Origin: Gemmatimonadota bacterium | Lineage (GTDB): Bacteria > Gemmatimonadota > Gemmatimonadetes > Gemmatimonadales > GWC2-71-9 | Direction of reading: 5' to 3' | Length of the DNA: 64,000 nucleotides | Assembly: GCA_003222085.1 (NCBI GenBank) | Contig: QHUK01000010.1 | Span: forward strand, 145,801-209,800 | Shown here: piece by piece, positions 16,792 through 48,682 of the stretch | Position numbering within the stretch: position 1 is the stretch's first letter | Layout: every line of letters begins with the position of its first letter | Notes under the pieces: generated by a model | Told to the model about the DNA's origin: nothing | The model's input: the letters and a program-made list of their open reading frames with translations, nothing else | Database searches by the model: none | Made by a program: the position numbers and the translations under genes

Positions 16792-16804
16792 GGCTAAGGA
16801 CCCA

Positions 16805-18505: not shown

Positions 18506-18535
18506 CCGCGAGGCGGGAAGCGGGAGGCGAGATGC

Positions 18536-23108: not shown

Positions 23109-23120
23109 AGGGGTGCCGGG

Positions 23121-27332: not shown

Positions 27333-28301
27333 TCAGCTTGGAACGGCGGCGCTGTCGCGCCACACCCGGGCGCCGCCCACGCTGAACCCTCCTTCATATA
27401 CGAAGCCCCCGGCGCCTACCGCTCCCCGGACCCGCTCCGCCAGGGCCTGGGCGGTACCCCGGTCGCCCACGATGCCGTACACCGCCGGCCCCCACGAACT
27501 CTGCCCTACGCCCACCGCGCCCCACGCCCGCAGCCGCTCGACCAACTCGCCCGTCTCCCCCGGCGCGAACACCCCCCCCTGCACGGGCGCGAACCAGCCG
27601 CCCGTGATGCGCTGGACTTCGCCCAGCGCGGCCCCAAACCCCGCCAGGTCGGCCTCGGCGAGCGCCGGAAGGAGCTGCATCAGCACGAGGTGCGCGACTC
27701 GCTCGACATCGCGCGCGCCGGGGGTCGGCAGCCGGGCGAACGCCGCCGCCTCGTCGTCGCCCGCGAGCCCGGGCTTCCCCCGCGGCACCACGACGACGCA
27801 GCGCCATGCGTCGGGAAACGGGAGCCGCGCCAACAGCGGTGCGACGCGCTCGCCGCCCGCCGCCCGTCCGCCTTCCAGCACGAAGCCCCCGTACGCGAAC
27901 GTCCACGTGCCGACGCCCGAGCGGCGCCCGCGGTCCACCGCGTGCGCCAACGACATCACGTCGGTCGGCAAACCGCACAACTCGGCGCTCGCGCGCGCCA
28001 CGGCGAGCGCGAGCTGCGTACCCGAGCCGAGCCCCGCGTGCGGAGGAATGGACCGATGCAGGCAGAAGTGCAGGCGCAGGTCCAGCCCGTGGTGCCGCGC
28101 GAACCGGCGGGCGAACTCGAGCGCGCGGGCCGCGTCGGGCCCTTCGGCCTTGAGCGCAGCGGCCCGGCGGGCCTCGAGCAGGAGCGATGGAGCGGGTACC
28201 GCCGCGCCGATCCCGCCGAAGCGCCGCCCCAGGTCGCCCCGCAAGTCGAGCACGCCGAAATGCAGCCGCGCCGGCGCCTCGACGAACACCGCTTCGCTCA
28301 T
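27333..28301 (-). CDS. mptG: beta-ribofuranosylaminobenzene 5'-phosphate synthase (GHMP-kinase fold; first committed H4MPT step)
   Basis: ORF 27333..28301. Motifs: APARLHFGVLDL, SIPPHAGLGSGTQLALAVA, GVGQSSWGPAVYG. Confidence 0.8.
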   Translation of the reverse strand: MSEAVFVEAPARLHFGVLDLRGDLGRRFGGIGAAVPAPSLLLEARRAAALKAEGPDAARALEFARRFARHHGLDLRLHFCLHRSIPPHAGLGSGTQLALAVARASAELCGLPTDVMSLAHAVDRGRRSGVGTWTFAYGGFVLEGGRAAGGERVAPLLARLPFPDAWRCVVVVPRGKPGLAGDDEAAAFARLPTPGARDVERVAHLVLMQLLPALAEADLAGFGAALGEVQRITGGWFAPVQGGVFAPGETGELVERLRAWGAVGVGQSSWGPAVYGIVGDRGTAQALAERVRGAVGAGGFVYEGGFSVGGARVWRDSAAVPS

Positions 28302-28858
28302 GCGTGAGCGGCCTCGCGGGCGCGGACATAGTCGTTGAGCAGCGCCATCGCTTCCAGCTCACGTAGCCCGGCGGTCTTGTCCACGATCACCTGGAGTCGC
28401 GCAAACTCCGCGCGGATCTGGTCCGCGGGAAGGAGGTGGGTGCGGGTCGCGAGGATTGCGGCCTCCAGCACCGCGTGGCGGGCGCGGTTGAAGCCCAGGA
28501 ATTCGCGCCGTATGCCGCGGTGCACGACGCGGGTCACGATCCGCGCCCGGGGCGGGCTTGCGTCCAGCGTGCGCACTTCGACCTCGCGCCAGGAGCAGGC
28601 CGCTTCGAGGATCACGCCGCGCACCACGGCCGCAGGTACCGCCGAAAACTGAACGTTCCCGATCGCTCCCTGCGCGAACAGCATCACGTCATCGGTGAGG
28701 TTGACCACGGCGACTCGCGTCGCCTCGAGGTTCTTGAACGTCGTGGTCTCGAGGAACGGCTTGATCACGATCTCTTCTTCTCCCCACTCGACGCCCATGG
28801 GGGCGAAGTTGGTCGACCCGCGGGCGTCCATCGTCGTGAGCACGGATTCGATGATCAT
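28298..28858 (-). CDS. DUF447-family protein (H4MPT-island 'orf7' type)
   Basis: In-frame ATG 28858. There are ATGA overlaps at both ends (28855-28858 and 28298-28301). N-terminus MIIESVLTTMDARGSTNFAPMGV... The family call is from memory of methylotroph islands. Confidence 0.65.
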   Translation of the reverse strand: MIIESVLTTMDARGSTNFAPMGVEWGEEEIVIKPFLETTTFKNLEATRVAVVNLTDDVMLFAQGAIGNVQFSAVPAAVVRGVILEAACSWREVEVRTLDASPPRARIVTRVVHRGIRREFLGFNRARHAVLEAAILATRTHLLPADQIRAEFARLQVIVDKTAGLRELEAMALLNDYVRAREAAHA

Positions 28859-29496
28859 CGGGCCAGCTCGACCGGACGCTCCGCGATGGTCGCTCCGTCG
28901 GCCCGGCGCGGCAGATCCTCGATCGGCGTAGCCGCGCCGTGCAGGAAGCGGTCGAGGAGGACGTAGCCGTACTCGGTAAGCACGGATTCGGGGTGAAACT
29001 GCAGCCCGATCACCGGGTCGCGCACATGCTCCACCGCCATGATCTCCCCGTCCTCGGCGCTGGCGGTGACACGCAGGTCGGCGGGAAGCCCCGAGCGGGA
29101 AATGGCGAGCGAGTGGTAGCGCGCCGCCGGGAACGGGCTCGGGAGCCCCGCGAACAGGCCAGTCCCGTCGTGGTGGATGCCGGACGCTTTGCCGTGCATC
29201 GGACGGCGGGCGCGCACGATCCCGGCTCCGTACGCGGCGCCGATGCACTGGTGCCCCAGGCACACGCCGAGGATGGGCGTGCGCTGCCCGAAGCGGCGGA
29301 CGACGTCGGTCGAAATCCCCGCCTCCCCGGGCGTGCACGGTCCGGGGGAGATGATGATATGCGATGGCCGCGACGCCTCGATTGCCTGGAGCGTCGTGGC
29401 GTCGTGGCGTCGTACGACGGGTTGTTCTCCCAGCTCGCGCACGTAGCGGGCCAGGTTGTAGACGAACGAGTCGTAGTTGTCGATCAACAGGATCAT
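28855..29496 (-). CDS. pabA: aminodeoxychorismate/anthranilate synthase component II (glutamine amidotransferase)
   Basis: In-frame ATG 29496. Motifs: MILLIDNYDSFVYNL, GVCLGHQCIG (catalytic Cys), LQFHPES. Confidence 0.85.
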   Translation of the reverse strand: MILLIDNYDSFVYNLARYVRELGEQPVVRRHDATTLQAIEASRPSHIIISPGPCTPGEAGISTDVVRRFGQRTPILGVCLGHQCIGAAYGAGIVRARRPMHGKASGIHHDGTGLFAGLPSPFPAARYHSLAISRSGLPADLRVTASAEDGEIMAVEHVRDPVIGLQFHPESVLTEYGYVLLDRFLHGAATPIEDLPRRADGATIAERPVELAR

Positions 29497-30965
29497 GGGA
29501 GTAAGGCGGCGATGAGTCCGCCGGCCTTGTCGAGCGTCTCGCGGTATTCCTGCTCCGGGTCGGAATCGGCCACGATGCCGCCGCCGACCTGGAAGTACAC
29601 GTCGCGGCCGAGCACGAGACAGGTGCGGATCACGATGCTCGTGTCCAGCGCGCCCGAAAGGGAGAGATAGCCGATGGAGCCGCAGTATGCGGCGCGCTGC
29701 GTGGGCTCGAGCTCCGCGATGATCTGCATCGCGCGGACTTTGGGGGCACCGGTGATCGAGCCGCCGGGGAACGCCGCCCGCAACAGGTCCACCGCGTCGC
29801 GCTCCGGCGCGAGCTCGCCTACGACGGTGGAGACGAGGTGGTGGACCGTGGCGTAGTGCTCGATGGCGAACAGCTCGGGCACGCGCACGGTTCCGGCGCG
29901 GCACACGCGCGACAGGTCGTTCCGGAGGAGATCCACGATCATCACGTTCTCGGCCCGGTCCTTGTCGCTCTCCACGAGCGCGCGCGCGAGCGCCGCGTCG
30001 TGCTCCGGGGAGAGCCCCCGGGGACGGGTTCCCTTGATCGGTCGCGTCTCGACTCGGCCGCCCGGTTCTACCCGCAGGAAGCGCTCGGGGGACGAGCTCG
30101 CCACCACCACGTTCCCGAAGTCGAGGTAGGCGGAGAAGGGCGCCGGATTGCGGTGGCGCAGCCGGCGGTACAAGTCGAGCGGCGTGCCGGCGAGCGGGGC
30201 TTCGAGGCGCTGCGACAGGTTTGCTTGGAAGATGTCGCCGGCGTAGACGTACTCGATGACGCGCGCGACGGCGTCGAGGTAGCCCTCGCGCGTGAAATTC
30301 GATCGGACGCCGGGGATACCGGGCACCGGATACGATGGAGCGGCAGAGCGTCGAGCCGGGCGCGGGGGGGCTCCCGGAGCGACTGCGTCTTTTTGTCGCG
30401 CAGGGAGCCCCCCCACGCCCGGCCGGGCCAGCCGATCCTTCAGGACAGCGAGCCGGTGGGCCGCGCGGCGCTCTTGGGCCATTCCCCGCTCCGGAATCCC
30501 CGTCGAGATCACCCAGGCGCGTCCCGCCGCGTGGTCCCACGCGATCACCCAGTCATATAGACCGAGCAGCAGGTCGGGCACGGCCAGGTCGTCGTAGCGC
30601 GGCCGCGGGACGCGCTCGAGCATCATGCCCCAGTCGTACCCGACGTAACCCGCGGCGCCGCCCTGGAACGGCGGGAGCTCCGCCACCGGCGCGGCTCCGT
30701 GTGTCGCCACGAGCGTCCCGACGTGTGCCAGCGGGTCCCCGGCGACGCGGACCCACTTCCCCTCCACGAGCTGCTGGGTGAGCAGCCCCTTCGAGCGCAC
30801 CGCCGTGACGGGATCGGCCGCGAGGAACGAGTAGCGCCCCAGATGCTCCGGATCGATCGCGCTGTCGAGGAATAGAAGAAAAGGCATGCCCTGAAAGCGC
30901 GCGCACGTCTCGAGCGGGTCCGGGGCGGGCACGAGCTCGTGGACCAGCGGCGATGGGGCGCTCAC
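29493..30965 (-). CDS. pabB: aminodeoxychorismate synthase component I
   Basis: In-frame GTG 30965 (GTGA overlap). Chorismate-binding fold. The RPIKGTRPRG motif has Lys, which is PabB-like, whereas TrpE has Ala at that position as I recall. Also GGSITGAPK and YCGSIGY. Confidence 0.78.
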   Translation of the reverse strand: MSAPSPLVHELVPAPDPLETCARFQGMPFLLFLDSAIDPEHLGRYSFLAADPVTAVRSKGLLTQQLVEGKWVRVAGDPLAHVGTLVATHGAAPVAELPPFQGGAAGYVGYDWGMMLERVPRPRYDDLAVPDLLLGLYDWVIAWDHAAGRAWVISTGIPERGMAQERRAAHRLAVLKDRLARPGVGGLPARQKDAVAPGAPPRPARRSAAPSYPVPGIPGVRSNFTREGYLDAVARVIEYVYAGDIFQANLSQRLEAPLAGTPLDLYRRLRHRNPAPFSAYLDFGNVVVASSSPERFLRVEPGGRVETRPIKGTRPRGLSPEHDAALARALVESDKDRAENVMIVDLLRNDLSRVCRAGTVRVPELFAIEHYATVHHLVSTVVGELAPERDAVDLLRAAFPGGSITGAPKVRAMQIIAELEPTQRAAYCGSIGYLSLSGALDTSIVIRTCLVLGRDVYFQVGGGIVADSDPEQEYRETLDKAGGLIAALLP

Positions 30966-32404
30966 CCGCTCCCCTTGGCGCGCCGGGCGCGCGAGCGGGC
31001 GCGCGCCGACCGTTGCGTCAGCCTCACATGTTCGGGCCCGCGGTCGTCCGGCGGCGTGAGGTAGCCCCACTGCAGCGCGCCCTCCTGTCGGTACGTCTTC
31101 CCCAGAGTGATGGCGAGCTTCGCCTTCATGAGCTCGCGCCCGAGGTAGAACGCGTGGCTCGCTTCGTCCACGCCGAGCTGGGCGAAGATCTCGTGGATGT
31201 CCGTGCCCCGCACGAACCGCTCGCTATTGAACACGGTGATCGTGTCGCGGTCGGTGAAGATGCGGAAGTTCGGGTCCGTGACGGCGCGCTGCAGCTCCCG
31301 CAGCTCGGCTTCGGCGTAGGCGAGGACGCCCGCGTCCTTCACGGTCAGGAGCCGGTCGTCGACGCCTTTGGGGAGCGCGTTGTGAGTGACTGCGTGGTAC
31401 ATGAGCCGCCGGGCGATGTCGATCTCCCGCACGGCGCCCCGCGCCCAGGGAATCACTTCGGTCGTGAGCACGGCGCGCACGCCGAGTTCCTGGCCGACGG
31501 CGAGGAGCAGGGCGTTGACGCCCGTCGTGTCGGCGGCGGTGAGCTCGGTGATGTTGCCGACCCCCATGAAGAGCGGCGCGGCGGGGTAGCGCCGGTGCGT
31601 CTCCGCGTATCGCTCGAGCGAGCGCATGAACCCGAACCCGATCGGCTCGATGACCGGATCGATGAGGTACGACACGCCCCACTGCTCGAGCGCGGCGACG
31701 CTCGGCTCCAGCGTTTCGAGCCCCTGGCCAAAATCGGGGATCACGACGACGCGCGTCTTGCTGCCGGCCAGCTCGCGCGCCACCTCGCGGTTGGAGGCGT
31801 TGACGCTCAGGACCAGCTCGGCGCCCGCCCCAACGGCCGTGCGGATCTCGTCGGGGTCGAACGAGTCGATGCTCACCCGCATCCCCTCGCCCACGAGCTC
31901 GCGCACCACATCGCCAAGGCCGGGGAATTCGCGTCCGGGTGTGCAGCCGATGTCGATCACATCGGCACCGCTCGTGCGATAGTGCTGCGCCTCCCGGCGG
32001 ATCGCGTCACGCGCGAGACGTGGCGCGTTGTTCACCTCGGCGACGATCTCGATGTCGTAGGCCCCATAGTCGCGGGCCAGGGCGGCGCGCCCGAAGTATT
32101 CCGGGATCTGCCGCAGGTCCTTCGGCCCCTTCTCGACCGGGACTCCCACCCGCTGCGCGATCACCGTGGGGTCGCCCTCGCACAGCCCCGGGAGGAGCAC
32201 GAGGTCCGTACCGGCCGGGACCTGAAGGAACCGGGCGATCCACGCGGTCGTCATCAAGGCGGCGACGGTGATCTTCATGACCGCCACCTCCCACGCGAAC
32301 GCCGGACCCATCTCGGTGATGGTCCGGCGCAGCGCGGGCTCGGCGAGCTTCCCCGTGACGAACAACACGCGACGCGGCGCGCGCACCGCCGCACCGGCCG
32401 TCAC
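30962..32404 (-). CDS. dihydropteroate-synthase-like pterin-binding protein (H4MPT biosynthesis type)
   Basis: In-frame GTG 32404 (GTGA overlap). The DHPS-like core includes GADVIDIGCTPG and MRVSIDSF. It has an N-terminal extension and a C-terminal domain, as in methylotroph and archaeal homologues. Confidence 0.7.
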   Translation of the reverse strand: MTAGAAVRAPRRVLFVTGKLAEPALRRTITEMGPAFAWEVAVMKITVAALMTTAWIARFLQVPAGTDLVLLPGLCEGDPTVIAQRVGVPVEKGPKDLRQIPEYFGRAALARDYGAYDIEIVAEVNNAPRLARDAIRREAQHYRTSGADVIDIGCTPGREFPGLGDVVRELVGEGMRVSIDSFDPDEIRTAVGAGAELVLSVNASNREVARELAGSKTRVVVIPDFGQGLETLEPSVAALEQWGVSYLIDPVIEPIGFGFMRSLERYAETHRRYPAAPLFMGVGNITELTAADTTGVNALLLAVGQELGVRAVLTTEVIPWARGAVREIDIARRLMYHAVTHNALPKGVDDRLLTVKDAGVLAYAEAELRELQRAVTDPNFRIFTDRDTITVFNSERFVRGTDIHEIFAQLGVDEASHAFYLGRELMKAKLAITLGKTYRQEGALQWGYLTPPDDRGPEHVRLTQRSARARSRARRAKGSG

Positions 32405-32760
32405 CGCGGGTCGCCCGAGCGCACGAACTTGTTCGGCGTCCCTTCGAGCGCACCACCTTTCGGGCGCCACAAGACCGTCTCGTCGATCTTGCGTGCGAGC
32501 TCGAAGTCCTTGTCGGTGATGCCGCCCGCCGCGTGGTTCTGCAGCTTCACGATCACGCGCCCCCAGGTCACCGAGAGGTCGGGGTGATGGTAGGCCGCTT
32601 CAGCGACGTAGCCGATCGCGTTCACGAGCATCAGCGTGGTGGGCCAGCCGTCCGTCTTGTAGTTCCGCCGGATCCAGCCGTCCTCGTACCACCAGCCCGG
32701 GAAATCCTTGAGCTTCGCCTCGATCTGCGCGTCGGAGTAGGTCGGTTCTTTCGCTGCCAT
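32401..32760 (-). CDS. phhB: pterin-4-alpha-carbinolamine dehydratase
   Basis: ORF 32401..32760. PCD motifs: AYHHPDLSVTWGRVIVKLQNHAAGGITDKDFELA. Confidence 0.82.
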   Translation of the reverse strand: MAAKEPTYSDAQIEAKLKDFPGWWYEDGWIRRNYKTDGWPTTLMLVNAIGYVAEAAYHHPDLSVTWGRVIVKLQNHAAGGITDKDFELARKIDETVLWRPKGGALEGTPNKFVRSGDPR

Positions 32761-32781
32761 GACGGTCTCCTTATCGAAGGG

Positions 32782-33615
32782 CTAGACCACGCCTCCGCCA
32801 TTGATCAGCAGCATCTGGCCGGTCACATAGGCGGCGGCGTCGGAGGCGAGGTAGACGGCGGCGTAGGCGATGTCCTCCGGCGTGCCCCAGCGGGCAAGCG
32901 GGATCTTCGCGGAGATGCGCTGCTTCACAGCCGGGTCGAGCTCGCTGCCGTAGGCGGTCTCGATCCAGCCGGGGCCGAGCACGTTCACCCGGATGCGCGG
33001 CGCCACGGAGTGCGCGAGCGCCCGACTGAAGGAGTACACGCCGCCCTTCGCGGCGCAGAACACCTGGGCGTATTCACTCTTGATCCCGCCGCCGAGCACG
33101 TGGTCCCACGACATGTTGAGGATGACGCCCCCCGAGGCGGGAGGCTGCGCGTCCATGAGCTCGACTGCCTTCCAGGAGGCGAGGACCGTACCGCGCAGAT
33201 CCACGGCGAGAAGCCGATCGAGCTTCTCGATGCGGGAGAGCCGCGCGGCGTCGCCGGTGAGGATGTCCGCTCCCGCGTTGTTCACCCACACGTCCACATG
33301 TCCGAACGTGCGGCGCAGGGTGTCCGCGAGCGCGTCCAGGTCGCCCTGCTCGGCGACGTCGGCGCGGATCGCCTCCGCGCGCCGGCCGGTGGCCCGGGCG
33401 GCTTCGGCGGTCTCGTCTGCGCCGTGCCGGTTCGCGCGGTACGTGAGCGCCACGTCCGCCCCCGCTGCTGCATAGGCGAGGGCGATCGCGCGTCCGATGC
33501 CGCTGGACGCGCCGGTGATGAGCGCCACCTTCCCGTCCAGCGACAGCACGCCCGGAGCGTCGACGACGGTGCCGGGCGACGCTGGCAACTCTTCGTTGGG
33601 CTGTCGTTTTGACAT
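32782..33615 (-). CDS. short-chain dehydrogenase/reductase (SDR) family oxidoreductase
   Basis: Motifs: TGASSGIGRAIA (TGxxxGxG), NNAG, and a YxxxK-type region (FCAAKGG). Substrate not inferable. Confidence 0.85.
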   Translation of the reverse strand: MSKRQPNEELPASPGTVVDAPGVLSLDGKVALITGASSGIGRAIALAYAAAGADVALTYRANRHGADETAEAARATGRRAEAIRADVAEQGDLDALADTLRRTFGHVDVWVNNAGADILTGDAARLSRIEKLDRLLAVDLRGTVLASWKAVELMDAQPPASGGVILNMSWDHVLGGGIKSEYAQVFCAAKGGVYSFSRALAHSVAPRIRVNVLGPGWIETAYGSELDPAVKQRISAKIPLARWGTPEDIAYAAVYLASDAAAYVTGQMLLINGGGVV

Positions 33616-33676
33616 CGCGTCTCCGAACGCCTAACCTATCGGCGGCTTCGGGACAGCCACAAGGGAGCGGTCGGAA

Positions 33677-34504
33677 ATGCAGCTTCTCATCAGTGTTGCC
33701 GGGCCCGCCGAAGCGCGCGCCGCGCTGCGCGGCGGGGCGGACGTGATCGACGCGAAAGATCCACGGCGTGGCGCCTTGGGCCCCGTGCCCCCGCACCGGC
33801 TCGCGGCCGTCCGCGCGGCGGTCGCCGGCGCGCGTCCGATCAGTGCCGCCTTGGGAGACGCCGCGAGTGAAGACGCGCTCGCCCGGGCCGTAGCCCTGGC
33901 GGTGTCGGTCGGTGTCGCCTTCGTGAAGGTGGGCTTCGCCGGCGTCACGAGCGAGCCTCGGGCGCGCCGCCTGGCGCTGGCTGCCCAACCGCGGGCCGGG
34001 ACGGACGTAGGGGCTCGGCTGGTGCTCGTCGCCTACGCGGACTGGCGGCGCGCCGAGAGCCTCGCGCCGGCACGCGTCGTCGCCGTCGCTGCGGCCGTCG
34101 GCGCGGCCGGCGTGCTGCTCGATACCGTGAACAAGGGCGTCCCCTTGTTCGCGATCGAGCCTCTCGCATCCCTGGCCGCCTGGGTCGCGGCCGCGCACGC
34201 CGCGAGGTTGTTCGCGGCGCTCGCCGGTGGCCTGTCGGGATCGGACTTCGTGAGGGCGCGCGCGCTCGGCGCCGATCTCGTGGGAGTGCGGGGCGCCGCG
34301 TGCGTCGGGGGACGAACGGGCCGGGTATCGCGCGCCCGGGTCGCGGCGCTGCGAGCCCTAACCGGCGCGGCGGCCCCCCCGGCCCCCCCGCCCCCCGCGT
34401 GTGTGCCGGTCGAGAGGGGGCTCCTCTCGCAGCGCGACGTCGAGCTGTCCGAGATCGTCCGCCGTGACGATGAGATGCTCCACGCCGTGCGGGAGCGTGC
34501 GTAA
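33677..34504 (+). CDS. mfnB: DUF556 / MfnB-like (5-formylfuran-3-yl)methyl phosphate synthase (methanofuran biosynthesis)
   Basis: MQLLISVAGPAEARAALRGGADVIDAKDP...GALG. The TIM-barrel-like pattern is typical of DUF556. The C-terminal ~40 aa look like a non-conserved run-on. Confidence 0.7.
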   Translation: MQLLISVAGPAEARAALRGGADVIDAKDPRRGALGPVPPHRLAAVRAAVAGARPISAALGDAASEDALARAVALAVSVGVAFVKVGFAGVTSEPRARRLALAAQPRAGTDVGARLVLVAYADWRRAESLAPARVVAVAAAVGAAGVLLDTVNKGVPLFAIEPLASLAAWVAAAHAARLFAALAGGLSGSDFVRARALGADLVGVRGAACVGGRTGRVSRARVAALRALTGAAAPPAPPPPACVPVERGLLSQRDVELSEIVRRDDEMLHAVRERA

Positions 34505-34999
34505 GAAAGACGAGTCGACGAGCGTCCTCGCGTCTGCGGGCGCCGGCTTGATCAAGACCACGCGCCGCGCGTGCAGCTGGCCCGCGAGCCAGGCGGCGAT
34601 GCTGTCGCTCGTGACCTCCCAGGAATGCGGGAGCGGATCCGCGGCCCGGAGCCAGCGGAATGGCGCGAGCACCGGGAGCCGGTCGGCCTGGAGGGCCGCG
34701 GCGATCCCGCCCTCGCCGTCGACCAGCGCGGCGTGGGGGAGGCGGGCGGCGAGCGCGTGCGCGTACTGGTCCATCCCGAGCACCGCCATCCAGTGCGCCG
34801 CGTCTTCGCCGATCTTGACCCGCTTGAACATTTGCCGGACCGCCTCGGCGAACGGTCCGCCGCCCGGAAGCACTACGAGCCGGCGACCCGCTCGGAAGGC
34901 GGTCAGGGCTTCGATCACCAGCTCGAACGCACCGGCTCTGCCGAGCAGGCCCCCGCCGACCTTGACGACCGTGTGCACCACGGGGGTCTCGCCGGTCAT
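34358..34999 (-). CDS. amino-acid-kinase-fold protein (H4MPT/methanofuran island type, MfnE-like)
   Basis: In-frame ATG 34999 (ATGA overlap) within ORF 34358..35722. Motifs: VVKVGGGLL, VVLPGGGPFA. The tail is a Gly/Arg run-on. Confidence 0.65.
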   Translation of the reverse strand: MTGETPVVHTVVKVGGGLLGRAGAFELVIEALTAFRAGRRLVVLPGGGPFAEAVRQMFKRVKIGEDAAHWMAVLGMDQYAHALAARLPHAALVDGEGGIAAALQADRLPVLAPFRWLRAADPLPHSWEVTSDSIAAWLAGQLHARRVVLIKPAPADARTLVDSSFLRTLPHGVEHLIVTADDLGQLDVALREEPPLDRHTRGGRGGRGGRRAG

Positions 35000-36000: not shown

Positions 36001-36005
36001 TGCGC

Positions 36006-38977: not shown

Positions 38978-38982
38978 CGCCG

Positions 38983-39414: not shown

Positions 39415-39455
39415 GGAGTGGCTCCTTGGTAGTGAGGGTGTGAGGGTGCGGCGCC

Positions 39456-41188: not shown

Positions 41189-42075
41189 GCCAGGATCTTC
41201 CGAAGGTGGAAGTGGTGCGGCCCGAGCTTGCCGCCGAAGTTCGCCGCCGTGATCGTGTTCACCCCGCGGCGGCATGCCGCCGTGATGCCGGTGCGCATGG
41301 CCGCCTCGATTGACGGGGCATCCGTGCCGTCGAGCACGATCTCGAGCACGCTGTTCACGCCCTCGGGGAGCTGGGACTGGGTGCTCGCCCGGAGCGTGGG
41401 ATCGAACGGATCGTTGGTCGTCGCCACCATGTTCTTGTAGCGCGTCGAGCCTACCTTGCTGCCGCTTCGCACCACGCCGCCGGGGAACGGGAGGATCACG
41501 CCCGGGAGACTGGTCATCGCGTCCACCGCCGCCTCTGCGGCGGCGAGTGCGGCATCTGCGTCATCGGCGAGGATCAGGAAATTTCCGCCGCCCACGCCCT
41601 TCAGCATCCCGAACGTCTCCTCGATCAGGAACTCCCCTTCCATGACCGGCAAGCGCCAGTAGCGCTTCCCTCCGATCACCTTGCTCGCCTGGAACCCGTC
41701 ACCGAACACGCGCAGCGCCCTCCCGACCGCGAGCCGATCAGGCGCATCGGGAAGGCCGTCGAAGCAGGCCGTGGTGGGGCAGGTGAGCACCGTTTGTCCG
41801 AGCCGGACGATCAGCTGCTCTGGGAGGCTTTGCTTATCCATCGTGAAAAACAGCACGCTGATCCCCGGTCGCTCATCCGGCGTCTCGGCGGGCGTGAGCT
41901 CCCGCTCGATTCCCGCCTCGCACTTGCAGCCGATCACCGAGGTCGCGAACCCCGTGAGCTTGATCGCCGCCTCCCGAGCCCACTTCGCGGTCCGCCCCGT
42001 GATCACGATCCGCGCCACCCGCATCGTGAACGCTTCGGCGAACGTATCCGCGATCGCGACGCCGTTGATCTTCAT
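41185..42075 (-). CDS. fhcD: formylmethanofuran:tetrahydromethanopterin N-formyltransferase
   Basis: In-frame ATG 42075 (ATGA overlap). Ftr-family similarity (MKINGVAIADTFAEAF, GGGNFLILA, PFPGGVVRSGSKVGS). Confidence 0.88.
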   Translation of the reverse strand: MKINGVAIADTFAEAFTMRVARIVITGRTAKWAREAAIKLTGFATSVIGCKCEAGIERELTPAETPDERPGISVLFFTMDKQSLPEQLIVRLGQTVLTCPTTACFDGLPDAPDRLAVGRALRVFGDGFQASKVIGGKRYWRLPVMEGEFLIEETFGMLKGVGGGNFLILADDADAALAAAEAAVDAMTSLPGVILPFPGGVVRSGSKVGSTRYKNMVATTNDPFDPTLRASTQSQLPEGVNSVLEIVLDGTDAPSIEAAMRTGITAACRRGVNTITAANFGGKLGPHHFHLRKILA

Positions 42076-43706
42076 GCGACCGGGTCCGCACCATAGTTCT
42101 CGAACGCGACGCACGCATATTCCGCGAAGAATCCCTTCAGATCCGTGATGACGGCTGCGTCGTACGGAGGCCGAACGGCGAGCCGGCGCCCGGCCGGCGC
42201 GCGGCGCAGCTGGCCTTCCTCGACGACGAGCGTCCCGGCCTTGATCACGTAGCGCGGCGCCGCGAACATCTTCGCGCGATCGGCGTCGTTCGCATAGATC
42301 GTCACGTCCGCGTCCGCCCCCGGCGCCAGGTGCCCCTTGCCCCGCAACCCCAGGAGGCGAGCCGGGCCCGCCCGCGTGATGATCGCGATTTCGCCGAGCG
42401 TGTATTCGCGCGACAGCCCATCGAGCAGGGCGCTGCCCACGAGCAGCTTCTGGTTCACCCGCTTGAGCCGATCGTCGCGGTACGCCCGGTCCATCAGCAG
42501 GCGGATCAGCTCGGGGTACGAGAGGAAGGTCCCTCCGTTCGGATGGTCGGTCGACAGCACGACGCGCCACGGGTCGTTCGCGAGCAGGAAGAGCTCGAGC
42601 CCCACCGCCCACTGCAGCGCGGCGACGGCCGCCGTCTCCTTGTACGCATACGGCACGATGCCGCAGCCCGATTCGAGCTCGATGTCCACGTTCACCCACT
42701 TCCGGCCGCTGCTCGCATAGAGCAGGTGCTCGACCGGGCCGTCCGCGGTCACGGTCGTCACCGGACCGAACATCACCTGCCCGACGTCCGCGCTCACCTC
42801 GGGGTGGGCGTTCACGTACTCGCTCACCTCGCGTGCCGCCGACGCCCATCCCTTGCCCGGCCCTCCGCCATAGCTGTGGAACTGTAGGTGCGTGAAGTGG
42901 GCGCGCTGTCCCGAAAGGGCCTTCATGCTCTCGAGCGTGGTCGCGGAGTTCCCCGCCTGCCCCAGGTTGTTGCAATGGATGTGCACTGGGTGCGGCAGGC
43001 CGAGCGCGTTGGCGGCGCCGGCGAGCGCCTCCAGAATCTTCCGTGGCGTGACGGCGCTCGAGCCGAGTGCATCGTCCAGACCGCTCACGTTGCGCCGATC
43101 ACCGCCACCCTTCCACACGGCCACGCCCCCCGGGTTCACGATCTTGATGGCGTAGGCCCGCGTAGTGCCCACCAGCCACGCGGCGTAATCGCGGGCCCGG
43201 GCCGCCTCACCCGCAGCGAGCTGGCGCAGCAGGTAATCGTCGTTGCCGAGCAGCACGAAGAACCCGGAGTCGATGATCGGCGTGTCGTCGAGCTCCGCGT
43301 GCGCCTGCCGCGCGGCGATGGGCGCCACCGCCGCTTCCATCGCCGTCGTGTATCCGAGCCCCGCGTACCGGTATCCGGTCGCGAACGTGCTCGGGACGGT
43401 GCCCCCACTGCCGGAGCGCGCGCCCGCGCCATCCTCGAGCCGCGGAGCGGGGACAGGATCGGTCGCATGCTCGTCAGGGAGCAACCGCCGAGCATGGTTC
43501 ACGCTCGACCCGGCAACGTGCGCGTGGATGTCCACGCCCCCGGGCATCACGACCATGCCGCGGGCGTCGAGCCGCGGCGCGCCCGCCGGCAGCTCGGCCA
43601 CGATCCGGTCGCCCTCGATGCACACATCGCGCACCACGCCGTCCTCCGCGTTCGCGGGGTCGTACACCGTGCCGCCGGCGATGCGCAATCGCGTGGGGTT
43701 ACTCAT
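42072..43706 (-). CDS. fhcA: formyltransferase/hydrolase complex subunit A (amidohydrolase; FwdA homologue)
   Basis: ORF 42072..43706. Motifs: MPGGVDIHAHVAG (metal-binding HxH), HIHCNNLG. Confidence 0.88.
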   Translation of the reverse strand: MSNPTRLRIAGGTVYDPANAEDGVVRDVCIEGDRIVAELPAGAPRLDARGMVVMPGGVDIHAHVAGSSVNHARRLLPDEHATDPVPAPRLEDGAGARSGSGGTVPSTFATGYRYAGLGYTTAMEAAVAPIAARQAHAELDDTPIIDSGFFVLLGNDDYLLRQLAAGEAARARDYAAWLVGTTRAYAIKIVNPGGVAVWKGGGDRRNVSGLDDALGSSAVTPRKILEALAGAANALGLPHPVHIHCNNLGQAGNSATTLESMKALSGQRAHFTHLQFHSYGGGPGKGWASAAREVSEYVNAHPEVSADVGQVMFGPVTTVTADGPVEHLLYASSGRKWVNVDIELESGCGIVPYAYKETAAVAALQWAVGLELFLLANDPWRVVLSTDHPNGGTFLSYPELIRLLMDRAYRDDRLKRVNQKLLVGSALLDGLSREYTLGEIAIITRAGPARLLGLRGKGHLAPGADADVTIYANDADRAKMFAAPRYVIKAGTLVVEEGQLRRAPAGRRLAVRPPYDAAVITDLKGFFAEYACVAFENYGADPVA

Positions 43707-44947
43707 GCGCCGAGCCGATCGCGCAGGGCGTGGACCGTGTCGAGCGCGGAGCGCTCCCCCGCGAGCGACGGCCGCAGCGGCAGGGGGACGTCGTCCATTC
43801 GGAACGCGGTGCCTCCCTCATGGATCCCCGCCCGCCCTGTGTCAACGGCGACCGCGGGCCGGAACGTCGCCGCGCTCGCCCGCGGTCCGATGGCGACGCT
43901 CCGCACCCGGGCGAGCGGGGTGGCGACCGGCTCGGGGAGGGTCGCGGGCGAGCCGACAACGAGCGCGGCGTCCACCTCTCCCGCGCCGAGCAGCGCGGCT
44001 GCGTCCGCTTGCGGGCGGTAGCTGGGGTACCCGCGCGCGAAGTCCACGGCGAAGGGGAACCCGGTCTGCCACGTGAGTACGGCATCGGCGCCGGAGCGGT
44101 TGCCGCCTCCCCGGAGCGTGGACAAGGCGCACCGCGTGGGGGAGTTCAAAGCCTGGGCGAGCGTCACGAGGGCCTCCGCCCGGGCCGGGTCGGCCGGAAC
44201 GGGGCCCGGCTCGCTGTCGGCCACGATGACGACATAGCGCGCCTCGGTCATCCGCCGGGCCAGATCGACCGCGGGCTGGAAACGCGCGTCCTTTCCCACG
44301 GCGCGGCCCTGGACGGTCGCGCGCATCATTTCTAGGCTATCCACCTCGTCGGCAGGCGCGAGCGCCACGCGTCCGTCGGCGTCCGCGGGACCGAGGGCTT
44401 CCCCTACGTCCACGGCGATCAGCGTGCGGCTGTTCCGGCCCTGGGGCGCCGCGACCCCGCGCGGCTCGACGGCGTAGCGGGAGCCGTACCGCGGATAGCG
44501 CGTGCTCGGGTCCACCGCCCAGAAAACGACCAGGTCGGCGCGCTGGCGGATTTCACCCAGGGTGGCGCCGGCGCGTCCGCGGCGCTGGGCCGCGAGCACG
44601 GCCGTCGCGGCCGTCGCGGCGAGGCTGTCCAGGGCGGCGTGTAGCCGGTCCGCGATGGCGACTGCTTCGCGTTGCGTTTCGCAGGAGAGGTCGCCGGCGA
44701 GATAGACGAGCGGGTGCGTCGCACCGGTGAGGAGTCCGGCGGCCTCGGTGAGCGCCTGCTCGAGCGAAGCAGAGCGGCCGTTCACGCGCGTCTCCGTAGG
44801 CACGGTCCCGTCCCCGAACCAGGCGGCGCCGAGCGCGCACGCGTTCCGGGCGTCCGCGATGCGGTCCTGCTTTACGACGACGGTGATGTCGTCGCAGGCA
44901 CATCCGCAGCCGAGGCAGGTCGCGTTCGCGACGGTGCGATCGGTCAT
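43703..44947 (-). CDS. fhcB: formyltransferase/hydrolase complex subunit B (FwdB homologue)
   Basis: In-frame ATG 44947 (ATGA overlap) within ORF 43703..46183. N-terminal Cys cluster CLGCGCACDDI and a molybdopterin-oxidoreductase-like fold. Confidence 0.85.
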   Translation of the reverse strand: MTDRTVANATCLGCGCACDDITVVVKQDRIADARNACALGAAWFGDGTVPTETRVNGRSASLEQALTEAAGLLTGATHPLVYLAGDLSCETQREAVAIADRLHAALDSLAATAATAVLAAQRRGRAGATLGEIRQRADLVVFWAVDPSTRYPRYGSRYAVEPRGVAAPQGRNSRTLIAVDVGEALGPADADGRVALAPADEVDSLEMMRATVQGRAVGKDARFQPAVDLARRMTEARYVVIVADSEPGPVPADPARAEALVTLAQALNSPTRCALSTLRGGGNRSGADAVLTWQTGFPFAVDFARGYPSYRPQADAAALLGAGEVDAALVVGSPATLPEPVATPLARVRSVAIGPRASAATFRPAVAVDTGRAGIHEGGTAFRMDDVPLPLRPSLAGERSALDTVHALRDRLGA

Positions 44948-46107
44948 GCGCTGCGCGCCTCGCGGCGCCCGACATCGCGATAGATCCCGGCGGCGCGACG
45001 CGCGAGGGCCGCGAAGCAGGCCGTGGCGTCGCGTCCGCGCGCGAAGATCGTGCAGATCGGCTCGCGCGGCGCGAAGCGAGTCCCGGGCGGCGAGATGTCC
45101 CGCACGTCCGCGTCCAAGACCCAGGGCCGCGTGTCCCCCAGCGCGATGGGGCGCCGGGCGTACACGATCGCTTTGCCGACTGCGTCCGGAGCGCGACGCC
45201 GGGCGGCCGCGAGGTCGAAAGTCGGCAGGCTGTGCCGGCAGGCGCGCACGTGCACGTCGAACATCGATATCCCGTAGGCGCGCTCCACCAGCTCCATCGC
45301 GGCGGTGTAGCGCGGGTTCACCTCGATTGCCCAGGGGAGCCCTCGCCGCGCGACGAAGTCGACTCCGTTCACCCCCACCAGCCCGAACGCCCGCGTGACG
45401 GTCTGGGCGAGCAGCGTCGCCCGGTCGAGCAGGCGTTCGTCCGCCGGGAACTGCGGATCTCCGGCAGCCCCCAGGATGTTGCCACAGTACCGAAACCCGT
45501 CGGCGCCGAAGGCGGTTTCCCCCGCGAGCACGCGCGAGAGGCCGAGCGGCACCGCGCGCCGCCCGTCCGCCACGAACACGATCGAGCCGGTTACGCCGAC
45601 GATGCGCTCTTGGAAGTAGCTCCTCCGTGGCATAGGCGCCCCCCGCCCCGTTCGCCACACGGCCACACCGTCGCCGCCTCCGGAATGGAGGGGCTTCACG
45701 ACCCAGCCGCCGCGCACGCCCGGCGCCGGTCGCGTGAGGCGGACGCGCGGAGCCGGGAGGCCGGCCTTGCCGACCACCCGGGCGAGGCGGCGTGGGTCGC
45801 GCGCCCGGGCCAGGACGGCTGGCGGGTTTCCCCACAGGACGCGCCGGGCGGCGAGGGCGCGCACGGCGCCGGGATGGTTTTCGAAGCCGGCTTCGTACAC
45901 GGCGGCTTCGCAGGACACGTCCCGCACGGCGGCGACTGCGGCGCGTGCCCTGAACCGGCCGCCGACCCGCACGACGTGCACCTCGGTCGCGCAGGCTCGG
46001 AGATCGAGATCTCCGAACCCATCGACCGCGATCACGTCGTATCCCGCTCGCACCGCGGACTCCGCGAAGCCTCGAGTCGAGACGCCGGCGAGGAGCACGC
46101 GCGTCAC
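44944..46107 (-). CDS. ATP-grasp enzyme of the H4MPT/methanofuran island (cofactor tailoring ligase, function unassigned)
   Basis: ORF 44944..46107 (GTG start, GTGA overlap). ATP-grasp pattern (WVVKPLHSGGGDGV, GVNGVDFV, IEVNPRYT). Confidence 0.7.
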   Translation of the reverse strand: MTRVLLAGVSTRGFAESAVRAGYDVIAVDGFGDLDLRACATEVHVVRVGGRFRARAAVAAVRDVSCEAAVYEAGFENHPGAVRALAARRVLWGNPPAVLARARDPRRLARVVGKAGLPAPRVRLTRPAPGVRGGWVVKPLHSGGGDGVAVWRTGRGAPMPRRSYFQERIVGVTGSIVFVADGRRAVPLGLSRVLAGETAFGADGFRYCGNILGAAGDPQFPADERLLDRATLLAQTVTRAFGLVGVNGVDFVARRGLPWAIEVNPRYTAAMELVERAYGISMFDVHVRACRHSLPTFDLAAARRRAPDAVGKAIVYARRPIALGDTRPWVLDADVRDISPPGTRFAPREPICTIFARGRDATACFAALARRAAGIYRDVGRREARSA

Positions 46108-47189
46108 GGCAACCCCAGCCGGCGCCGCGCCTGGTCGCGCGGCACGACATACAAGTGGTCCAGGACGCTGCCCTGCGCCTCACGAATCGCCAGTCGCTCG
46201 ACTAACGGGCCATTCACGCCCCCGGCGAGCCCGTCGGCGACGAGCGCCGCCCCTTGCGCCCCTTCCTTCGCCGTGTGAGCGAATCCCTCGAGCACACGCG
46301 TCGGCGCGAACGCCTCGAGCCGCTGCCGGATTGCGTCCGCCAGCGGCTCGACGTGTGCCAGTCGACCCGACAGCACGAATTCCCCGAGCGACGGGACTGC
46401 GGTCGCGAGCGCCACCGCCGTCTTCACGGCACTCTCGACCAGCGCATCGCCGGCGAGCTGCTCCGCCGGCGTCGTCGGGTGAGCGAGGCGCTCGGGCGAG
46501 GCGATCGTCTCATCCCACCCCGCGACGGCGGCCGCGCCGCCCTGGAACAGCAGCGCTTTGGGCACTTCGCCTGCGAGATACGCGACTTCACCGTCGAGCG
46601 CCCCTGCCGCGCGAAAGCCGAGGGGTCCCGCGGTCCCGCCTACACCGTCCACGATGCGGCCCGCTGCGACGGCGACGGCGGCGGTGAAGGCGCCGCCGAG
46701 TTCGAGCAGCACGAGCGACACGTTGGACAGCGCTCGCCCGAGCCGCCGGGCCTGCTCGGACACCGCGAGCGCGACCACGCACACCTTCTCCGCGGTGCCC
46801 ATGTCCACACGGTTCACCTTGCGGTGCGCGGGCACGGTGGGGAGGTGCACCACGCCGGGCGTGAGCACGACCGGCAGAGCGGAGCGCGCCAGCGCGCGCA
46901 CGAGACCGCGGAGGCCGCCAATGCCGCCGGTCTCCCCCGGGGCCGCCAGAAAGGCAAGGCGCAGATCTTCCTCGGTGGCGGCCTGCACCCGCGTGAGCGG
47001 CAGCCCGTACCCGGACGGGCCGGCGACGAGGTCGAGGGGGCCGGCGGCCTCGAGCTCGGCCACGAACCGGGCCGGTTCGGCCAGTGCCTCGGCGGTGGGC
47101 CAGGAGCGGTCGAGAAACAGGCGGCCGTCGTCGAGCCCGCACAGATCGATGCTCACCGTCCCCGGGTCGATGCCGATGACGCGGGGCAT
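46104..47189 (-). CDS. DUF1464-like ASKHA-fold protein (predicted kinase-like)
   Basis: ORF 46104..47189. VIGIDPGTVSIDLCG phosphate-1 motif, then LELGGAFTAAV. The family call is from memory. Confidence 0.6.
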   Translation of the reverse strand: MPRVIGIDPGTVSIDLCGLDDGRLFLDRSWPTAEALAEPARFVAELEAAGPLDLVAGPSGYGLPLTRVQAATEEDLRLAFLAAPGETGGIGGLRGLVRALARSALPVVLTPGVVHLPTVPAHRKVNRVDMGTAEKVCVVALAVSEQARRLGRALSNVSLVLLELGGAFTAAVAVAAGRIVDGVGGTAGPLGFRAAGALDGEVAYLAGEVPKALLFQGGAAAVAGWDETIASPERLAHPTTPAEQLAGDALVESAVKTAVALATAVPSLGEFVLSGRLAHVEPLADAIRQRLEAFAPTRVLEGFAHTAKEGAQGAALVADGLAGGVNGPLVERLAIREAQGSVLDHLYVVPRDQARRRLGLP

Positions 47190-47193
47190 CGGC

Positions 47194-48066
47194 TCACGGC
47201 TTCGGCGCCATCAACTCCCGCGCGACGTCGGCGATGGTCTCGGCGTCCAGCACGAGGTCGTTGCGCTCGAACAGGCGCGCAATGCACGCCTTGTGCACCT
47301 TCATCTTGAGGTTTCCGATGGCGAGTGCCCCGAAGCACACCACGCCCTGTTTCGTCACCCCGTCGTCCACCACATCGACCCCCTCGATGCCGAGCGGGGG
47401 AACGGCATTTACGTCGGCGACGACCTTGAGGCCCGGGCGGTTCGCCCACGCTTGCTTCGGGACGAGCATCACCCCCGCCGGTCCCGCGTTGAGCAGCAAC
47501 GCCGCGTGCTCGCAGGCCTTGATCGCGTCGCGCGCATCCGGCATGGCGATGGCGCTGACCGTGCCGCCGAAACGCTTCAACACCAGGTCCCGGGCCCGCT
47601 CACCGGCCTCGGCCTTACGCGACGTGATGCACACGTCCGCCCCCGCCTTGGCGAACAGCCCGGCGGCCCGAATTCCGACGGGCCCCGTCCCCGCGACGAT
47701 CAGGACGCGTTTGCCGCGCACATCTCCGGCCGCCTGCACCATCTTCGCCACCGCGGCGACCGCGGTCGTGTTCGACCCGTTCGAGTCGAGCATCGCCGAG
47801 ACCGTGAACGGCTTGAACATCGCTTTGGTCGCCGCGGCGAGCAGCTGCTCGCCCGCCGCGATGTCCGCCCCCCCGACGAAGACGGCGCTGTTCTTCAAGT
47901 CCTTGGGGCCGCGCGTGAAGATGCAGCCGTGGATCAGGTCGCGGACGTCGGCTTCGGTGATACCGCCGTAGCTCATCACCTCGTCGGCGCCGCCGTCGTA
48001 AGCGACCACCCGATCGAACACGCTCGGCAAGCGGGAGCTGTCGAGCTGCAGCAGGAGCCTACGCAT
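47194..48066 (-). CDS. mtdB: NAD(P)-dependent methylenetetrahydromethanopterin dehydrogenase (MtdA/MtdB/MtdC family)
   Basis: ORF 47194..48066. Motifs: FVGGADIAAGEQLL, VLIVAGTGPVGIRAAGLFAKAGADV (Rossmann). The subfamily is not resolvable by eye. Confidence 0.82.
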   Translation of the reverse strand: MRRLLLQLDSSRLPSVFDRVVAYDGGADEVMSYGGITEADVRDLIHGCIFTRGPKDLKNSAVFVGGADIAAGEQLLAAATKAMFKPFTVSAMLDSNGSNTTAVAAVAKMVQAAGDVRGKRVLIVAGTGPVGIRAAGLFAKAGADVCITSRKAEAGERARDLVLKRFGGTVSAIAMPDARDAIKACEHAALLLNAGPAGVMLVPKQAWANRPGLKVVADVNAVPPLGIEGVDVVDDGVTKQGVVCFGALAIGNLKMKVHKACIARLFERNDLVLDAETIADVARELMAPKP

Positions 48067-48111
48067 CAGGGTTCATGCTCCACGATGAGTCGACGCAGGG
48101 CTCGAACAGCA

Positions 48112-48139
48112 GTCGAGGGGCGGCAGCCCGCCCCTCGAC
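48112..48139 (-). terminator. perfect 12-bp stem hairpin after fae (terminator or attenuator before mtdB)
   Basis: GTCGAGGGGCGG cagc CCGCCCCTCGAC, read directly. It lies 28 nt after the fae stop. The downstream minus-strand sequence, UGCUGUUCG, is only moderately U-rich. Confidence 0.6.
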
Positions 48140-48166
48140 GTGGAATTCAGGCGACTGCCGGAGAGC

Positions 48167-48682
48167 TCAGCCCTTGTCCGCGCCGCCGGCGAACGGATGC
48201 GACGCCGTCTTCGCCTGGGAGATTACCTGGTCGATCTTCGGCTGGCCCTTGAGGGCGCGCTCGATCGATTCCTTCACCGCCCGGTAATTGAAGTCGAAGA
48301 TCTTCTTGTCGTTCTTCGCTTCCCAGTGGATGAACACACCCACCAGGATGCAATAGTCGTCCACCTTGTCCCGCGGGATGATGCCCGAGGACACGCTGTC
48401 GACCACCGCACGCGCGACCGCGGCCTGCGCCGGGCCGAACATTTGCACGGCCTGCGTGGCGTTCTTGAGGGTGACCTTGTTGAAGAGCAGGGTGTCGGGT
48501 TTCGCCGGCAGGTTGGGCGTGACGACGGCGAGCAGCTTGGTGAAACCGTCGGTGTTGTTCGACAACGTGCTGACGAAAGCATGCCCCGCGTGGCCCGACT
48601 TCGACCCGATGATCAAATCGATGTGGGCGACCTCATTCCCGTCGCCTACCAGAGACTCGCCAATGAAGAAATCCGCTGCCAT
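48167..48682 (-). CDS. fae: formaldehyde-activating enzyme
   Basis: ORF 48167..48682. GGGAGG RBS. Fae-family similarity along the full length ([28 protein letters not shown]). Confidence 0.92.

Follow-up and report, generated by a model that had tools for sequence, protein, structure and literature searches.

We analysed a 64,000-nt stretch of contig QHUK01000010.1 (GCA_003222085.1; positions 145,801 to 209,800 of the forward strand), hereafter called the window. It contains a block of 24 genes at positions 27333-48682 for formaldehyde oxidation via tetrahydromethanopterin (H4MPT) and for cofactor biosynthesis, and this block runs directly into the methanol dehydrogenase genes xoxF-xoxJ-xoxG. 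The region is very probably a resident, vertically inherited locus for the dissimilation of methanol and formaldehyde in an uncultured soil member of the Gemmatimonadales. The finding is correct, and the locus has been known for this lineage since 2016. Butterfield et al. 2016 (PeerJ 4:e2687, Fig. S3) describe soil Gemmatimonadetes with H4MPT biosynthesis genes immediately upstream of a pyrroloquinoline quinone (PQQ) methanol dehydrogenase gene; they report the whole H4MPT pathway, with PQQ biosynthesis and a tetrahydrofolate (H4F)/serine route elsewhere in the genomes, and XoxF as the top protein by abundance in the soil metaproteome. The locus underlies a methanol sink that is apparently quantitatively important in grassland soils, which was recognised in 2016, and the present analysis confirms it and refines the gene map but is not a discovery. 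What is left as new is the detail of a single contiguous block, the gene order fhcB-A-D-C and the missing reductase; the only new lead is an atypical short-chain dehydrogenase/reductase (SDR).

The G+C content of the window was about 70%, and raw lists of open reading frames (ORFs) were therefore noisy. The gene map was anchored on the gene calls of public contigs that match the window at >99.5% identity across 22.8-58.7 kb, and each block gene was re-translated from the window sequence itself. The 24 genes showed zero internal stops in this re-translation, in agreement with the gene calls of the near-identical contigs. Twenty-two of the genes are on the minus strand; the plus strand carries the other two, mfnB (33677-34504) and a HisA/HisF-like gene (36006-36758). 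As transcribed, the order is fae, mtd, DUF1464, ATP-grasp_3, fhcB, fhcA, fhcD, fhcC, mch, EthD-like, mptN-like, citG-like, PTPS, (HisA/F-like, opposite strand), mfnF-like, mfnE-like, (mfnB, opposite strand), SDR, pterin-4a-carbinolamine dehydratase (PCD), DHPS-like, pabB, pabA, DUF447, and mptG, followed by xoxF, xoxJ, xoxG, a pentapeptide-repeat gene, and a TIGR03866 beta-propeller gene. Overlaps of 4 nt were found at 12 of the approximately 19 same-strand junctions of the block, which suggests translational coupling and a few long transcripts.

Fae, Mtd, Mch, FhcD, and FhcA aligned over their full lengths with solved enzymes. The first gene of the block, fae (48167-48682, minus strand, as are all genes below unless noted), encodes a 171-aa formaldehyde-activating enzyme that matched TIGR03126 with 245 bits (cut-off 118) and M. 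extorquens Fae (1Y5Y) with 212 bits over its full length. The mtd gene (47194-48066) encodes a 290-aa MtdA-like methylene-H4MPT dehydrogenase with the Pfam domain Mpt_N; the score against M. extorquens MtdA (1LU9/6TLK) was 275 bits (E = 3e-81, full length). The 327-aa product of mch (39456-40439), a methenyl-H4MPT cyclohydrolase, gave 408 bits against TIGR03120 (cut-off 229) and 304 bits against 1QLM. The formyltransferase/hydrolase complex is represented by fhcB (43703-44947; 414 aa, FmdB/FwdB homologue, TIGR03129, 298 bits against a cut-off of 328, E = 7e-89), fhcA (42072-43706; 544 aa, amidohydrolase subunit, TIGR03121, 649 bits, cut-off 393), fhcD (41185-42075; 296 aa, formylmethanofuran:H4MPT formyltransferase, TIGR03119, 417 bits, cut-off 293), and fhcC (40424-41188; 254 aa, TIGR03122, 173 bits, cut-off 131). 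These matches indicate that the Fae, Mtd, Mch, and Fhc activities are all likely to be encoded here, by genes that are intact and full length.

The xoxF gene (25356-27122) encodes a 588-aa lanthanide-type PQQ methanol dehydrogenase (TIGR03075, 683 bits). XoxF aligned end-to-end with M. extorquens XoxF1 (6OC5, 724 bits) and M. fumariolicum XoxF (4MAE, 720 bits), and scored 615-639 bits against MxaF-type chains. Its motif WDYDG contains the extra lanthanide-ligand Asp, which stands two positions beyond the catalytic Asp (D-x-D). These features point to a methanol dehydrogenase of the XoxF type rather than the MxaF type. Downstream are xoxJ (24396-25223; 275 aa, TIGR03871, 259 bits, cut-off 212) and a gene for a xoxG-like c-type cytochrome (23873-24349; 158 aa) with a weak Pfam Cytochrome_CBB3 match and the haem motif CYRCH. 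The tail of the xox group (22134-23846) encodes a 241-aa pentapeptide-repeat protein, which matched NCBIfam pentapeptide families, and a 324-aa PQQ-catabolism-associated beta-propeller protein (TIGR03866, 270 bits). Genes for PQQ synthesis, formate dehydrogenase, or carbon assimilation were not found among the gene calls of the window.

The remaining genes of the block mostly belong to conserved families of the bacterial H4MPT and methanofuran cofactor set, which thus appears to be present. Those assigned to the H4MPT branch include mptG, the last gene of the block (27333-28301; 322 aa, beta-ribofuranosylaminobenzene 5'-phosphate synthase, TIGR00144, 153 bits, cut-off 113.5); an orf19-type DUF447 gene (28298-28858; 186 aa, Pfam DUF447_N/C, no NCBIfam match); pabA (28855-29496; 213 aa, TIGR00566, 218 bits, cut-off 121); and pabB (29493-30965; 490 aa, TIGR00553, 371 bits, cut-off 328, with the TrpE models below their cut-offs). 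The pabB coding sequence also contains a G+C-rich inverted repeat at 30355-30423, whose 29-nt arms show 90% complementarity and enclose a loop of 11 nt. The DHPS-like protein of the orf20/MptH type (30962-32404; 480 aa) matched TIGR00284 with 208 bits and Pfam DUF6513, Pterin_bind, and DUF4346, and the adjacent PCD gene (32401-32760; 119 aa) matched NF002017 with 94.8 bits (cut-off 80). The plus-strand HisA/HisF-related gene encodes a 250-aa protein (TIGR00734, 91.6 bits; Pfam His_biosynth), and the orf7-type CitG-like protein, linked to H4MPT biosynthesis (37227-38099; 290 aa), matched Pfam CitG, with weak NCBIfam matches in its C-terminal part only. The mptN-like gene encodes a 293-aa RimK-family glutamate ligase (38096-38977) that scored 235 bits against MptN (NF040720, equivalog cut-off 350) and 195 bits against TIGR00768 (cut-off 143). 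The COG0720 protein of the PTPS-I/III type (36737-37240; 167 aa, Pfam PTPS) contains the motif CERLHGH. The pattern CExxHGH is the signature of PTPS-I/III hybrids and has been linked to the formation of 6-hydroxymethyl-dihydropterin, and archaeal PTPS-III has been linked to H4MPT synthesis (de Crecy-Lagard and colleagues, PMC5041015); the enzyme in the window probably supplies 6-hydroxymethyl-dihydropterin.

With respect to methylofuran, the plus-strand mfnB-like gene encodes a putative 4-HFC-P synthase of 275 aa (Pfam 4HFCP_synth; NF002575, 139 bits, below cut-off), and the mfnE-like gene (34358-34999) encodes a 213-aa protein of the amino-acid-kinase fold (Pfam AA_kinase; MfnE NF040622, 72 bits, below cut-off). 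The 334-aa product of the mfnF-like gene (34996-36000) matched TIGR03123, 'H4MPT-linked C1 transfer pathway protein', with 312 bits (cut-off 244) and MfnF with 215 bits. The 387-aa ATP-grasp_3 protein (44944-46107; Pfam ATP-grasp_3) is probably MfnD/orf1, the methylofuran glutamate ligase; the equivalence of mfnD and orf1 is given in PMC5020050. The 361-aa DUF1464 protein (46104-47189; Pfam DUF1464, weak butyrate-kinase-like ASKHA match) is the product of a conserved H4MPT/methylofuran-linked gene whose position is conserved in Gemmatimonadales loci. Between mch and mptN, a gene at 38983-39414 encodes a 143-aa EthD-family protein with a lipoprotein-like N-terminus (TIGR02118, 53.5 bits, cut-off 30.5), and it occupies the same position in most Gemmatimonadales loci.

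We propose the following pathway, in which the enzymology was assigned by homology and the tests made here concern sequence features only. Periplasmic XoxF, carrying a lanthanide and PQQ, would oxidize methanol to formaldehyde together with XoxJ and the cytochrome XoxG. In the cytoplasm, Fae would join formaldehyde to H4MPT, the MtdA-like NAD(P)-dependent dehydrogenase would form methenyl-H4MPT, and Mch would convert this to formyl-H4MPT. FhcBADC would then load the formyl moiety onto a methanofuran-type cofactor and free it as formate by hydrolysis. The block would also provide for the greater part of cofactor synthesis. PabAB would supply p-aminobenzoate and MptG the aryl-ribose unit, the pterin unit would come from the PTPS-I/III-type enzyme, and the DHPS-like protein would condense the pterin and aryl-ribose units. 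Later steps of H4MPT synthesis may involve DUF447, the CitG-like and HisA-like proteins, MptN, PCD, and the atypical SDR, and methylofuran would be synthesized with MfnB, MfnE, MfnF, the MfnD-like ATP-grasp enzyme, and DUF1464.

The original prediction had described 24 genes at 27333-48682, 22 of them on one strand and mostly with 4-nt overlaps, in a block that abuts xoxFJG, and the re-translation, gene calls, and family matches agree with this description. It had also claimed that all steps from formaldehyde to formate via H4MPT are encoded and that a near-complete set of cofactor genes lies in one co-directional block; the family scores, intact ORFs, and Pfam and NCBIfam matches are in accord with both claims, and with every function that it named. 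Its list covered 22 of the 24 genes and omitted the SDR and the EthD-like lipoprotein. It had placed PQQ biosynthesis, formate dehydrogenase, assimilation, and dmrA/afpA outside the window, as the gene calls do. The fhc order was given as C-D-A-B, whereas the transcription order is fhcB-A-D-C.

The atypical SDR (32782-33615; 277 aa) has a classical SDR fold and is a candidate reductase of H4MPT biosynthesis. It contains the motifs TGASSGIG and NNAG, but Ser-Trp-Asp-His (with W170-D171) replaces the usual catalytic-Ser segment, and Phe186 of the motif F186-x3-K190 aligns with the catalytic Tyr of FabG. W170, D171, F186, and K190 were invariant in a 49-sequence alignment of Gemmatimonadales and Planctomycetota homologues. 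Of the close homologues from Gemmatimonadales, 112 of 120 had both Trp-Asp and Phe-x3-Lys, as did 110 of 118 homologues from Planctomycetota. When 1.84 billion cluster representatives were searched exhaustively, the Trp-Asp motif was present in 44 of the 125 representatives with at least 230 residues among the best 150. These patterns indicate that the SDRs with WD and F-x3-K form a distinct, uncurated subfamily. The best sequence and fold matches of the SDR were FabG and glucose dehydrogenase. Foldseek comparison of its AlphaFold model (pLDDT 89) with the PDB showed a FabG-like SDR of generic type that favours neither PTR1 nor DHPR, and did not tell functions apart.

Genomic contexts were examined for eight distant members of the subfamily that are 37-51% identical to the SDR. 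It stands beside the DHPS-like gene in four other lineages. P0144 has SDR, DHPS-like, pabB, pabA, DUF447, and mptG, which is the order of the window itself; P0136 has PTPS, a 124-aa gene, SDR, PCD, and DHPS-like; P0147, on a 4.8-Mb contig whose homologues are named Planctomycetota, has mptG and, further along, SDR and DHPS-like, with DUF447, pabA, and pabB alongside; and in P0134 the SDR and DHPS-like genes overlap by 4 nt. P0128 had no H4MPT genes within approximately 9 kb, and the contexts of P0153, P0164, and P0130 were uninformative (short contigs or contig ends). The linkage of the SDR to H4MPT genes is frequent, not universal. In the P0130 context (L181/L182), the WD-type SDR is the last gene before a contig end, so that its downstream side is missing, and molybdenum-cofactor genes (MoaA-like, MobA, MobB) lie upstream of it; this is another pterin-related neighbourhood. 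A close relative (P0048) has a 318-aa product with adh_short and Pterin_4a domains, through either a fusion of SDR and PCD or a read-through.

No DHFR or Flavoprotein domain, as in DmrA and AfpA/DmrB, was found in any gene call across the 64 kb. DmrA and AfpA/DmrB are the two bacterial lineages of dihydromethanopterin reductase (Burton et al. 2018); Planctomycete genomes have no recognised afp, and DmrA, a substitute without homology to it, is restricted to a few proteobacteria (Chistoserdova 2016, PMC5020050). In Planctomycetota and Gemmatimonadota, no enzyme has been assigned to the last, reductive step of H4MPT synthesis, and the SDR is a directly testable candidate for it. We propose the SDR as a reductase of H4MPT biosynthesis because its gene adjoins the DHPS-like gene, the slot of afpA in proteobacterial islands. 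Since the Tyr proton donor is lost and an Asp is conserved, reduction of a C=N bond fits better than reduction of a carbonyl. We tentatively suggest that the SDR is a reductase dedicated to H4MPT biosynthesis, most attractively a further, non-homologous dihydromethanopterin reductase of Gemmatimonadota and Planctomycetota, whose clusters are without afpA/dmrB and dmrA; the balance of probability is somewhat against this assignment. As alternatives, it may reduce the ribofuranosyl to the ribityl group, or recycle oxidised H4MPT with the adjacent PCD. Membership of the PTR1/FolM/DHPR-type pteridine reductases was rejected on the grounds that the best matches are elsewhere and that Phe186 replaces Tyr, although the SDR may still work alike. 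A tetrahydrobiopterin-type module of PTPS, sepiapterin reductase, and PCD is also unlikely, as the PTPS motif CExxHGH is that of PTPS-I/III and not PTPS-II, and the SDR is without the Tyr needed for carbonyl reduction. A full-text literature search turned up no paper on an SDR in H4MPT synthesis, which leaves room for an earlier description.

The host, about which the original prediction had asked, is an uncultured soil member of the Gemmatimonadales, as judged from Mch loci in GTDB species genomes. Contigs >99.5% identical to the window came from many grassland-soil metagenomes and one metagenome-assembled genome (MAG). A scan with Mch, using one genome per GTDB species, gave at least 568 loci; the statements on identity and naming cover the best 80, which were 70-85% identical. 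Nearly all of these 80 were from MAGs named Gemmatimonadales or Gemmatimonadetes, and they include the MAGs of Butterfield 2016 and MAGs labelled AG8, AG12, AG22, and AG49. In tblastn comparisons with the Mch loci, dozens of Gemmatimonadales species shared the gene order, including the SDR, PCD, and EthD genes, with protein identities of 40-97%. A minority (L019, L020, L056, L063, L069, L074, L079, and L082) had a second arrangement, in which the fhc genes are 31-57% identical to those of the window and the ATP-grasp and mfnF-like genes are inverted upstream, with the half from mch to mptG unchanged. A scan with MptG showed xoxF directly downstream of mptG in all 45 metagenome loci long enough to show it, all of which are close relatives, and the series xoxF-xoxJ-xoxG-pentapeptide in 34 of the 45. 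Five MAGs with other names (L042, Bifidobacteriaceae; L069, delta proteobacterium; L073, Vicinamibacterales; L077, Competibacteraceae; L086, Acidobacteriota) carried a Gemmatimonadales-like Mch (69-72% identity) and neighbouring genes. These are probably mis-binned or mis-named contigs. In L086, a Pfam scan placed only part of the island next to a PQQ enzyme.

The inheritance of the block can be judged from these distributions and from its borders. The window contained no tRNA, no window gene call had an integrase domain, a search for island-border repeats gave only low-identity chance matches in GC-rich DNA, and there was no GC break between the block and its flanks. Because the gene order is conserved and none of these marks is present, the block is most probably resident and vertically inherited, as had been predicted. 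Recent acquisition as a mobile genomic island, from Proteobacteria or Planctomycetes for instance, would agree with the compact, co-directional, and accessory-looking character of the pathway and with its patchy occurrence among bacteria (PMC5020050). However, the synteny persists over dozens of Gemmatimonadales species to a divergence of about 40-70%. In comparisons with PDB entries, moreover, FhcA scored 442 bits against archaeal FwdA (8RJA) and 368 bits against M. extorquens FhcA (6S6Y), FhcD scored 316 bits against Ftr (1M5H) and 295 bits against 6S6Y_D, and the matches of FhcB at E <= 1e-5 included five archaeal FwdB/FmdB chains, with M. extorquens FhcB not among them. Scores to archaeal proteins that equal or exceed those to M. 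extorquens speak against a recent proteobacterial origin. The block is not a mobile genomic island by these observations, and recent acquisition is extremely unlikely. The same archaeal scores, and an N-terminal four-Cys cluster motif (Fe-S type) retained in FhcB, would favour a redox-active formylmethanofuran dehydrogenase, with a route that ends in CO2 or runs reductively. Against this, the column of the W/Mo-ligating Cys/Sec is Ala in FhcB in all three alignments shown with FwdB chains, and no homologues of FwdD, F, G, or H were found among the window gene calls. Because of these two features, the Fhc complex is best read as a hydrolase that releases formate and not as a dehydrogenase, and a redox-active complex is very improbable.

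The source of the formaldehyde is a separate matter. The block may mainly detoxify or dissimilate formaldehyde of other origin, such as the demethylation of methoxylated aromatics or the oxidation of methanethiol, with no methylotrophic growth. Neither an assimilation pathway nor a formate dehydrogenase is encoded in the window, many non-methylotrophs have H4MPT modules (PMC5020050), and the Gemmatimonadales MAG recovered in 2024 from 13C-methanol-labelled soil DNA by stable-isotope probing also had methanethiol oxidase. On the other side, all informative relatives have xoxFJG immediately downstream, and Butterfield et al. 2016 report both the top rank of the clade's XoxF among soil proteins and genomes with H4F and serine-pathway genes. 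We consider formaldehyde of other origin unlikely as the main substrate, and dissimilation of methanol and formaldehyde remains the preferred reading. Several observations weigh against this reading. The clade has no cultured member, and the 13C label of the Gemmatimonadales MAG could reflect cross-feeding. MfnB, MfnE, MptN, and FhcB score below the NCBIfam equivalog cut-offs, which makes the exact steps given for them putative. The 64-kb window encodes no GTP cyclohydrolase, HPPK, PabC, MfnA/C, or recognised dihydromethanopterin reductase. Scans for promoter and terminator consensus sequences over 22-51 kb did not exceed shuffled expectation, and the operon structure is thus without such support.

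A cluster of the dnaA type was located at 13176-19873 by Pfam matches to genes called on a contig with 99.87% identity to the window. It comprises dnaN and dnaA (14529-16100) on the minus strand and rnpA, yidD, yidC, and mnmE on the plus strand, and this is an origin-proximal gene set with dnaA-dnaN beside rnpA-yidC-mnmE. The cluster is 2.3 kb from the xox genes, and the end of mnmE is 7.5 kb from mptG, compared with the distance of approximately 6 kb that had been predicted. The prediction had also seen in this a position of high gene dosage, and the proximity of the cluster and an AT-richer dnaA-dnaN spacer (GC dips to 0.51 at 14250-14400) would suit a location selected for dosage. However, only the dnaA cluster marks an origin. 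DnaA boxes were not enriched (two one-mismatch matches to the E. coli-type box against 1.6 expected), and the GC skew tracked the coding strand with no origin-type inversion within 64 kb. The flanking genes point toward dnaA: the plus strand holds 9 of the 10 genes at 0.3-13 kb, and the minus strand holds nearly all of those at 22-64 kb. Transcription of the highly expressed xox/H4MPT block runs towards dnaA and would therefore meet head-on a fork that starts from an origin beside dnaA. Slow-growing soil bacteria have only small dosage gradients, which also counts against selection for dosage, and we regard such selection as improbable.

An Rfam scan of the window gave a single match, outside the block, which was a bacterial class A RNase P RNA at 8501-8869 on the plus strand (306 bits). 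Upstream of it, at 3358-8456 on the plus strand, are two very large ORFs. One encodes a 1017-aa protein in which a Ser/Thr kinase is joined to FGE-sulfatase and TPR domains, and the other encodes 670 aa with no Pfam match.

Overall, the original prediction stands in part. The pathway, the cofactor set, and the resident status hold; the question of the host has been overtaken by the literature, and the dosage proposal was left unsupported. It had named an identical, already described island in a well-characterised clade as one outcome that would undo it. Such an island was largely described in 2016, yet the clade is uncultured and not well characterised.

The locus resembles the proteobacterial H4MPT islands of M. 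extorquens AM1 and M. trichosporium OB3b in having the same enzyme families together with conserved unknowns. Common to both are DUF447/orf19, DHPS-like/orf20, HisA-like, TIGR03123, and CitG-like/orf7 genes, PCD near the mptG group, and pabB. M. trichosporium OB3b has five islands (mch-orf5-orf7-fae-orf17, orf19-orf20-afpA-orf21-orf22, fhcCDAB, orf9-mtdB, and pcbD-mptG). In contrast to the proteobacterial islands, of which there are up to five, the window has one block, with the order fhcB-A-D-C instead of C-D-A-B; it contains neither afpA nor dmrA, and the SDR is at the DHPS-like gene where proteobacteria have afpA. Unlike those of M. extorquens, its FhcA, FhcB, and FhcD match archaeal proteins as well or better. 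The H4MPT clusters of Planctomycetota share the sub-block of SDR and DHPS-like with DUF447, pabA, pabB, and mptG, whereas their genes are more widely dispersed, neither xoxF nor a fae-fhc block adjoins the sampled locus, and the SDR is only 39% identical. If the proposal for the SDR is true, it would share its reaction and cluster association with DmrA (DHFR-like) and with DmrB/AfpA and DmrX (flavoproteins). It has no homology to any of these, being of the classical fold without the catalytic Tyr, and is a candidate only.

The likeness to archaeal Ftr, Mch, and FwdABC is full-length homology with bit scores at least equal to those for the M. extorquens proteins. The route in the window differs from archaeal methanogenesis in that it would be oxidative, with a FhcB that is without the metal-ligating Cys and with no FwdD/F/G/H, and its dehydrogenase is predicted to be NAD(P)-linked (MtdA-like) and not dependent on F420 or H2. 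The closest known system is the Butterfield locus (MAGs 13_1_20CM_4_69_16 and 13_1_40CM_69_22), which is from the same phylum and soil type and has fae, mtd, fhc, mch, and H4MPT biosynthesis genes just upstream of xoxF. The available text of the paper leaves the SDR, the EthD-like and methylofuran genes, and the proximity to dnaA undiscussed. The window represents another species-level population, with Mch 81-83% identical, and two loci from these MAGs (L012 and L015) have the gene order of the window at 53-93% protein identity.

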